Virus record (IMG/VR): IMGVR_UViG_2551306526_000003
Reading direction: 5' to 3' (one strand)
Source: a virus
Lineage: Duplodnaviria; Heunggongvirae; Uroviricota; Caudoviricetes
Length of the DNA: 24,982 nt
Of the stretch, positions 15,789-17,743 are shown in pieces (position 1 is the first letter of the stretch; each line of letters begins with the position of its first letter). Position numbers and translations under genes: made by a program. The notes beneath the pieces are model-generated. The model did no database searches. It was given only the letters and a program-made list of their open reading frames with translations, and was not told the origin of the DNA.

Positions 15789-16810
15789 CAGGCTGCGGCA
15801 TTTTGTCCGCGCCGGGCTTCGCTCACTGTTCAGGCCGGAGCCACAGACCGCCGTTGAATGGGCGGATGCCAATTACTATCTCCCGAAAGAATCCGCATAC
15901 CAGGAAGGGCGCTGGGAAACACTGCCCTTTCAGCGGGCCATCATGAATGCGATGGGCAGCGACTACATCCGCGAGGTGAATGTGGTGAAGTCTGCCCGTG
16001 TTGGTTATTCCAAAATGCTGTTGGGTGTTTATGCCTACTTCATAGAGCATAAGCAGCGCAACACACTTATCTGGTTGCCGACGGATGGTGATGCCGAGAA
16101 CTTTATGAAAACCCACGTTGAGCCGACCATCCGTGATATTCCTTCGCTGCTGGCGCTGGCCCCGTGGTATGGCAAAAAGCACCGGGATAACACGCTCACC
16201 ATGAAGCGTTTCACCAATGGGCGTGGCTTCTGGTGCCTGGGCGGTAAAGCGGCAAAAAACTACCGTGAAAAGTCAGTGGATGTGGCGGGTTATGATGAAC
16301 TTGCTGCCTTTGATGAGGATATTGAACAGGAAGGCTCTCCGACGTTCCTGGGCGATAAGCGTATTGAAGGCTCTGTCTGGCCAAAATCCATCCGTGGCTC
16401 CACGCCCAAAGTGAGAGGCACCTGCCAGATTGAGCGTGCAGCCAGTGAATCCCCGCATTTTATGCGTTTTCATGTTGCCTGCCCGCACTGCGGGAAGGAG
16501 CAGTACCTTAAATTTGGCGACAAAGAGACGCCGTTTGGCCTCAAATGGATGCCGGATGATCCCTCCAGCGTGTTTTATCTCTGTGAGCATAATGCCTGCG
16601 TCATCCGTCAGCAGGAGCTGGACTTTACTGATGCCCGTTATATCTGCGAAAAGACCGGGATCTGGACCCGTGATGGCATTCTCTGGTTTTCGTCATCCGG
16701 TGAAGAGATTGAACCGCCTGACAGTGTGACCTTTCACATCTGGACGGCGTACAGCCCGTTCACCACCTGGGTGCAGATTGTCAAAGACTGGATGAAGACG
16801 AAAGGGGATA
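15763..16810 (+). pseudogene. A: Terminase large subunit A, truncated after codon about 349 (...[13 protein letters not shown]) by deletion-fusion to J; reads out of frame to a stop at 16864-16866
   Basis: N-terminal 349 aa match lambda gpA; sequence after GGGGATA (about 16808) switches to J-derived DNA. Confidence 0.9.
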
Positions 16811-17743
16811 ACCGAATCCCATCTCGGCAAGGAGCTGCTGGAAAAAGTCGACCTGACGGAGGATAACGCCAGCAGACTGGAGGAGTTTTCGAAAGAGTGG
16901 AAAGACGCCAACGATAAATGGAATGCCATGTGGGGCGTCAAAATTGAGCAGACCGAAGACGGTAAGCATTATGTCGCGGGGCTTGGCCTCAGCATGGAGG
17001 ATACAGAGGAAGGCAAACTGAGCCAGTTTCTGGTTGCTGCTAACCGTATCGCGTTTATTGACCCGGCAAACGGGAATGAAACGCCGATGTTTGTGGCGCA
17101 GGGCAACCAGATATTCATGAACGACGTGTTCCTGAAACGCCTGACGGCCCCCACCATTACCAGCGGTGGCAGTCCTCCGGTATTTTCCCTGACATCAGAC
17201 GGAAAGCTGACCGCTAAAAATGCGGATATCAGTGGCAGTGTGAATGCGAACTCCGGGACGCTCAACAACGTCACGATTAATGAGAACTGTCAGATTAAGG
17301 GGAAACTGTCAGCCAATCAGATTGAAGGCGATATTGTCAAAACGGTCAGCAAGTCTTTCCCCCGCACGAACAGTTATGCCAGTGGCACCATCACGGTAAG
17401 AATCAGTGATGATCAGAAATTTGACCGGCAGGTCATGATACCGCCAGTGTTATTCCGCGGTGGTAAGCATGAGAATTTCAACAGTAATAACCAACAGTCA
17501 TACTGGTATTCAACCTGCCGGTTAAGAGTGACCCTCAATGGTCAGGAGATTTTTAATCAGTCCACGACGGATGCTCAGGGCGTATTTTCCTCCGTTATAG
17601 ATATGCCTGCCGGACAGGGGACGCTGACACTGACATTCAGCGTATCTTCATCAGGAGCGAATAACTGGACACCAACAACCAGTATCAGCGATCTGCTGGT
17701 TGTGGTGATGAAAAAATCCACAGCAGGTATCAGTATCAGCTGA
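16808..17743 (+). pseudogene. J: 3' remnant of tail tip/host-specificity gene J (last about 311 codons, receptor-binding region); no start of its own
   Basis: Frame reads [112 protein letters not shown]..., matching the lambda J C-terminus. Confidence 0.85.

Follow-up and report, generated by a model that had tools for sequence, protein, structure and literature searches.

The window, that is, the whole stretch of 24,982 nucleotides analysed here, carries on its plus strand a cos site followed by nu1, by remnants of the terminase gene A and the tail-tip gene J, and by a lom-family gene. The cosN site (GACAGGTTACG/GGGCGGCGACCT) lies at 15043-15065, with window position 15054 corresponding to base 1 of lambda, and a cosB region near-identical to that of lambda is found downstream of it. 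The nu1 gene (15243-15788) is intact and encodes a terminase small subunit of 181 residues that is 99.4% identical to lambda Nu1. The A remnant, denoted A' (15763-16809), is what is left of the gene of the terminase large subunit, namely its 5' 55%; as determined by Pfam, translation and tblastn, it encodes gpA residues 1-349. It contains the GpA_ATPase domain alone, complete according to Pfam, the nuclease and the portal-binding C-terminus being gone. Its reading frame runs on out of frame for 18 residues in DNA that stems from J (16810-16866) and ends at a stop codon at 16864-16866. The J remnant, denoted 'J (16808-17743), represents the 3' 27% of the tail-tip/host-specificity gene and corresponds to gpJ 822-1132 (translation, Pfam, tblastn). 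From 16808 onwards it is open for 311 codons, up to the stop codon at 17741-17743, and it encodes the Phage_Tail_Tip and the receptor-binding Ig_GpJ_C domains of Pfam; at the joint, it lacks a start codon of its own. Because the 'J frame, as established by translation, is +1 relative to that of A', the two remnants are joined out of frame, so that the C-terminus of J cannot be translated as a continuation of A, in agreement with what an earlier note on this DNA had proposed. The first intact gene downstream of the scar is that of a lom-family outer-membrane protein of 199 residues (17810-18409), and both Nu1 and Lom are complete by Pfam.

When all lambda morphogenetic proteins were used as tblastn queries, matches were obtained for Nu1 (residues 1-181), A (1-350), J (822-1131), Lom, an N-terminal part of Stf and a fragment of Tfa, and no match was found in the window for W, B, C, D, E, FI, FII, Z, U, V, G, T, H, M, L, K or I. 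The statement of the earlier note that W through I are wholly missing is borne out for every one of these proteins, as is its statement that most of J is missing, with 821 of the 1,132 J codons gone. In the RefSeq annotation, the two halves appear as adjacent 'incomplete' partial pseudogenes.

The joint was mapped by blastn comparison of the whole window with the lambda genome (NC_001416). Window positions 15054-16810, covering cos, nu1 and the 5' part of A, correspond to lambda 1-1758 with 98.0% identity, and positions 16807-17301, covering the 3' part of J, correspond to lambda 17967-18461 with 92.3% identity; lambda 1759-17966 has no match anywhere in the window. The A-side and J-side matches share 4 bp, GATA, at 16807-16810. 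In a base-by-base three-way display, the A parent agrees with the window through ...AAAGGGGATA (up to 16810), and the J parent agrees with it from GATAACCGAATCC (16807) onwards, which places the breakpoint within the common GATA; the sequence of window 16790-16830 reads ...GACTGGATGAAGACGAAAGGGGATAACCGAATCCCATCTCGGCAAGGAGCTG.... This microhomology, a feature without strand, is found at lambda 1755-1758 and 17967-17970, and a single copy of it was kept at the deletion joint. The lost segment corresponds to lambda 1759-17970, or 16,212 bp, has an identical length in the intact UTAK-3 prophage, and contains the 3' 45% of A, the entire W through I region and 73% of J. The breaks fall at codon 349/350 of the terminase gene A and at codon 821/822 of the tail-tip gene J.

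The A-J pattern is not due to chance, since the matches of the two flanks extend over about 500 to 1,750 bp and each has an E-value of 0. The A'-'J deletion junction that had been proposed is thus confirmed by both lambda flanks, which are collinear up to the 4-bp overlap in the blastn comparison and in the three-way display. Its earlier placement at GGGGATA/ACCGAATCC, at about 16808-16810, agrees with a breakpoint in GATA, and the removal of about 16 kb is matched by the 16,212 bp measured against lambda as well as against UTAK-3. The sole inaccuracy concerns the J-side lambda coordinate, which had been suggested to be about 17600 and is in fact 17967-17971, a difference of about 370 bp. Contiguous A or J sequence across the joint, named beforehand as the observation that would speak against a deletion, was looked for by lambda alignment and was not found.

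The joint also creates a small inverted repeat at 16805-16820 (GGGAT-aaccga-ATCCC), one arm of which comes from A and the other from J. It was flagged on the minus strand by the terminator scan and is probably a coincidence. The Rfam scan revealed nothing relevant near the joint.

The scar belongs to a heavily decayed prophage of about 24 kb that occupies the lambda attachment site and is flanked by ybhC and ybhB. At its left end, an exact copy of the lambda att core, GCTTTTTTATACTAA (attL, 1331-1345, plus strand), adjoins ybhC. The attR core, with 14 of 15 bases matching, adjoins ybhB in E. coli APEC O78 (L001 26907-21) and lies just beyond the end of the window, at about 25206-25220 in window numbering when extrapolated from APEC O78. 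The chromosome on either side (ybhJ-ybhC to the left, ybhB-bioA-uvrB to the right) is collinear with K-12 around its empty attB. Blastn comparison with lambda returned the ordered blocks 27724-29420, 30354-32221, 33180-34401, 45966-48502, 1-1758, 17967-18461 and 19458-20491, and the genes that are still intact are int, xis, exo, kil, cIII, ral, the porin gene, the lysis genes, bor, nu1 and lom. Judged from its sequence, the element is a heavily decayed, cryptic lambdoid prophage: an att core lies at each end, it is collinear with lambda apart from deletions and insertions, and essential genes are missing or broken. A phage satellite of the cos-type PICI or P4-like kind was considered and rejected, as annotation and lambda alignment revealed only lambda/DLP12-type genes and no replication module, and the structural genes were lost by a break inside A and J instead of being natively absent.

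The window differs from E. coli APEC O78 (NC_020163), a strain described as O78:H9 ST23 (PMC4313913), at five positions only. One of them affects the side tail-fibre gene stf (18474-21780, plus strand), which encodes 1101 residues in APEC O78 and is split in the window by one extra A in the A-run at 19395-19401, giving the ORFs 18468-19409 and 18871-21780; either a sequencing error in the homopolymer or a true slip could account for the extra A. Of the remaining differences, two are indels of one base, at 3224 (in IS2) and at 7499, and two are substitutions, at 21081 and 21153.

Several other lesions are present in the element. A copy of IS2 sits in the early-left region at about 3165-4393, with the xis-proximal ORF on one side and ea-type genes on the other, and this insertion is common to APEC O78, E19057 and EC130. 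A second deletion, with a 2-bp overlap at window 8512/8513, has brought lambda 32221 next to 33180; most of bet and all of gam were lost, and the bet' pseudogene adjoins kil. At a third junction, at about 9727-9733, the lambda-like left arm ends shortly after ral, at lambda 34401, and gives way to a right arm of the DLP12 type that begins inside Q ('quuD), the two blast segments overlapping by 7 bp. The element lacks N, rex, cI, cro, cII, O, P, the nin region and the 5' portion of Q, and the prophage therefore has neither repressor nor replication genes. An intact nmpC/OmpC-type porin gene encoding 360 residues is found at 10135-11217 on the minus strand. The only Rfam match in the window is Lambda_thermo, the cIII thermoregulator RNA (8750-8808, minus strand, 88.5 bits).

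From 21960 onwards, the window contains a 44-codon fragment of tfa followed by 1.5 kb of AT-rich, ORF-poor DNA (34-35% G+C). A 13/15 match to the att core is then found at 23385-23399, followed by the gene of an AraC-family regulator (23465-24208) and by IS fragments, all of them before the true attR outside the window. The region 21960-24982 may be a moron or a relic of a second element.

The A'-'J joint most likely results, with a probability of roughly 90%, from a single illegitimate deletion of 16,212 bp through 4-bp microhomology inside one lambda-like prophage at att-lambda. Breaks in the two codons indicated above would have been joined via GATA, with one copy retained. The joining would have been microhomology-mediated and independent of recombination proteins, presumably by replication slippage or by end-joining of a break. 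In this one event, the prophage would have lost every head gene (W-FII), all genes of the tail shaft and of tip assembly (Z-I), the 3' portion of A and 73% of J. Combined with the separate deletions of bet-gam and of the entire immunity, replication and Q region, and with the IS2 insertion, it accounts for the locked-in, cryptic state of the prophage. Remnants of this kind are commonly inferred to persist through useful accessory genes, and this one may have been kept on account of bor, lom or the porin gene.

This reading is consistent with the structure of the joint. GATA is present as a direct repeat at the two parental breakpoints and as a single copy at the joint, and the same holds when UTAK-3 is taken as the parent. 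Microhomology of at least 4 bp is expected in 1.6% of random junctions by analytic calculation and in 1.9% of 200,000 A-J joins simulated with the UTAK-3 sequence; given this chance expectation of about 2%, the 4-bp microhomology is suggestive, and not proof, of a microhomology-driven mechanism. No extended homology was detected, the 120-bp breakpoint regions having a local alignment score of 15 vs 15.5 +/- 2.3 for random A/J pairs. Neither filler DNA nor an IS end nor an att-like site was found at the joint, where no base is left unaligned. From the 4 bp of homology, and from them only, it may be inferred that the event did not depend on RecA or on homologous recombination. As for the parent, the UTAK-3 prophage is 98.0% identical to the window on the A side and 99.5% identical on the J side, and for this reason the parent would have been a mosaic that has no exact representative in the collections, as judged from relatives located at other sites.

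It is improbable that the joint arose instead by recombination between two lambdoid prophages in one cell, with A' contributed by one and 'J by the other. The closest intact relatives do differ between the two sides, as VE-V11-M is the closer one on the A side (99.7%, compared with 98.0% for UTAK-3) and UTAK-3 the closer one on the J side (99.5-99.9%, compared with 98.5% for VE-V11-M), but such differences in the best relatives of each module are precisely what lambdoid mosaicism predicts for a single parent. Homologous exchange would furthermore yield in-register recombinants and not an A-J fusion, whereas the homology at the joint amounts to 4 bp only. An illegitimate join between two loci, for its part, would delete or invert the intervening chromosome, yet the att-lambda flanks are normal and collinear with K-12.

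With regard to consequences, a prophage with no heads or tails and no terminase nuclease would be unable to make virions, as follows from its gene content. The late activator Q is truncated, which leaves the late operon without its activator, and a promoter/terminator scan around the joint revealed no promoter-like site in 16400-18600. The best explanation ascribes no function to the scar itself. The possibility that A'-'J is a functional fusion, or that the remnant has been kept because A', Nu1 and cos act together, for instance by hindering the packaging of superinfecting lambdoid phages, is very slight. In keeping with it, nu1, cos and the reading frames of A' and 'J are free of secondary stops and frameshifts, and the GpA_ATPase domain in A' is complete. 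However, besides the truncation of Q and the lack of promoter-like sites in 16400-18600, the fusion is out of frame, and all copies are identical and clonal, so that the lack of further decay is uninformative on selection. Moreover, the EC130 copy has lost A', 'J, lom and most of stf with no apparent consequence.

Similarly, there is very little reason to expect that cos, Nu1 and the ATPase-only A' act as a decoy that poisons terminase assembly in superinfecting lambda-like phages, or that the chromosomal cos lets a helper phage package lom-stf-bio-uvrB, a segment that the 16-kb deletion has moved much closer to cos.

To return to the origin of the joint, its formation by an IS-mediated adjacent deletion or by site-specific recombination is very unlikely. 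While IS2 and IS fragments are present elsewhere in the prophage, no IS end or non-lambda base is found at or near 16807-16810, IS2 is 12 kb away, and the joint contains no att-like or recombinase target.

The joint is not confined to a single assembly. Of 5,426 complete E. coli genomes, 26 contain the 1,001-bp stretch centred on it at full length and with 100% identity. Different groups sequenced these genomes, whose sources are chickens, ducks, humans, a dog and a monkey, and the chromosomal site is identical in all four carriers examined in detail. A 43-mer across the joint also matched one contig from a human-gut metagenome, and over 4.2 kb this contig is collinear with APEC O78. The 43-mer is absent from GTDB species representatives and from IMG/VR, and no GenBank phage record contains the joint. 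Repeated prophages are a classic source of misassembly, and lambdoid prophages are repeated within E. coli genomes, with a median of 3 places per genome for the 1-kb joint query, but the notion that an assembler wrongly joined two lambdoid prophage fragments has next to no probability in view of the perfect identity over 1,001 bp in 26 independently produced complete genomes and of the presence of the joint in an unrelated short-read metagenome contig. The verification of the junction for which long reads had been recommended is thus provided by these 26 separately assembled genomes and the contig.

The sets of genomes in which the three large deletion joints of the element were found are almost identical, with 26 genomes for A'-'J, 22 for ral-'quuD and 21 for bet'-kil. 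Among the 5,426 complete E. coli genomes, none has the other two joints together with an intact A-J region, and searches of these genomes with the A side and the J side turned up no copy of this prophage at att-lambda whose A-J region is intact. As some carriers are labelled O78:H4, signs of horizontal spread were looked for at the level of the locus, and none was seen: with 10 kb of flanking chromosome counted in, the 37-kb locus of E19057 has 99.97% identity to that of APEC O78. A literature search on APEC O78 prophages turned up no description of the A'-'J scar.

The 'J remnant as a whole has 68% protein identity to gpJ 822-1131. Over its last ~150 codons (17301-17743), the match to lambda is lost at the DNA level, and the product of the adjacent lom gene (17810-18409) is 45% identical to lambda Lom. 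The end of 'J and the lom gene are 99.5-99.9% identical to the UTAK-3 prophage. Because these sequences diverge from lambda and match UTAK-3, the parent phage probably used a receptor other than that of lambda.

The scar is an ordinary instance of well-known prophage decay, precisely mapped, and does not represent a new kind of system. It indicates that the att-lambda element of the APEC O78/ST23-type lineage would be unable to make virions, and it adds one mapped case with 4-bp microhomology to the decay of lambdoid prophages in which accessory genes (bor, lom, porin) are kept. The 43-mer, found in one metagenome contig and, among 5,426 complete E. coli genomes, in 26 only, provides an exact lineage-specific marker. 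In annotation, A' and 'J would be better flagged as the two sides of a single deletion than as independent partial genes. Beyond such bookkeeping, the significance of the scar is small.

Lambda and intact lambda-like prophages are collinear with the window and 92-99.5% identical to it on both sides of the joint, with the same order of cos, nu1, A, J, lom and stf. They differ from it in retaining the entire 16.2 kb, from the 3' portion of A into the 5' portion of J, that the window lacks; the window element also lacks the bet-gam and N-to-Q regions of lambda. The UTAK-3 prophage (L004), which is intact and located at the DLP12 site, is 99.5% identical on the J-lom-stf side, from 16807 to 21961. 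The sister copy in EC130, in contrast, represents a further stage of loss. It is the same prophage at the same site, with the same bet'-kil and ral-'quuD junctions and 99.99% identity, in which a 5.8-kb deletion with a 2-bp overlap (L006 22299-22300) runs from the 3' end of nu1 into stf and corresponds to the removal of APEC O78 L001 17451-23276. A', 'J, lom and most of stf are missing from this copy, and with them the A'-'J joint. Their loss in EC130 indicates that decay is ongoing and that the A', 'J and lom remnants are dispensable.

The closest parallel among known cryptic prophages is DLP12 of E. coli K-12. Its upstream gene order is the same as that of the window, namely quuD, an nmpC-type porin gene, essD, rrrD, rzpD, bor, ybcV, ybcW, ylcI, nohD/nu1 and a truncated A, and DLP12 has 96-97% identity to window 9727-16070. 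It resembles the window element in having an intact cos and nu1 (nohD) and a 5' fragment of A, and in the deletion of all its head and tail genes. The two elements nevertheless occupy different sites, DLP12 being located at argU and the window element at att-lambda, and the nmpC gene of DLP12 is disrupted by IS5, whereas the porin gene at the equivalent position of the window is intact. They also differ in the extent of the loss. In DLP12, lambda 1018, at the end of aaaD, is joined to 22119 in tfa (tfaD), so that about 21.1 kb including J, lom and stf have been lost, while in the window lambda 1758 is joined to 17967-17971, and the C-terminus of J, lom and stf have been kept. A breakpoint shared with the truncated A of DLP12, which might have pointed to a hot spot or to a common origin, was considered and rejected, the positions being lambda 1018 vs 1758. 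Because the breakpoints differ, the deletion in DLP12 is an independent event of the same kind.
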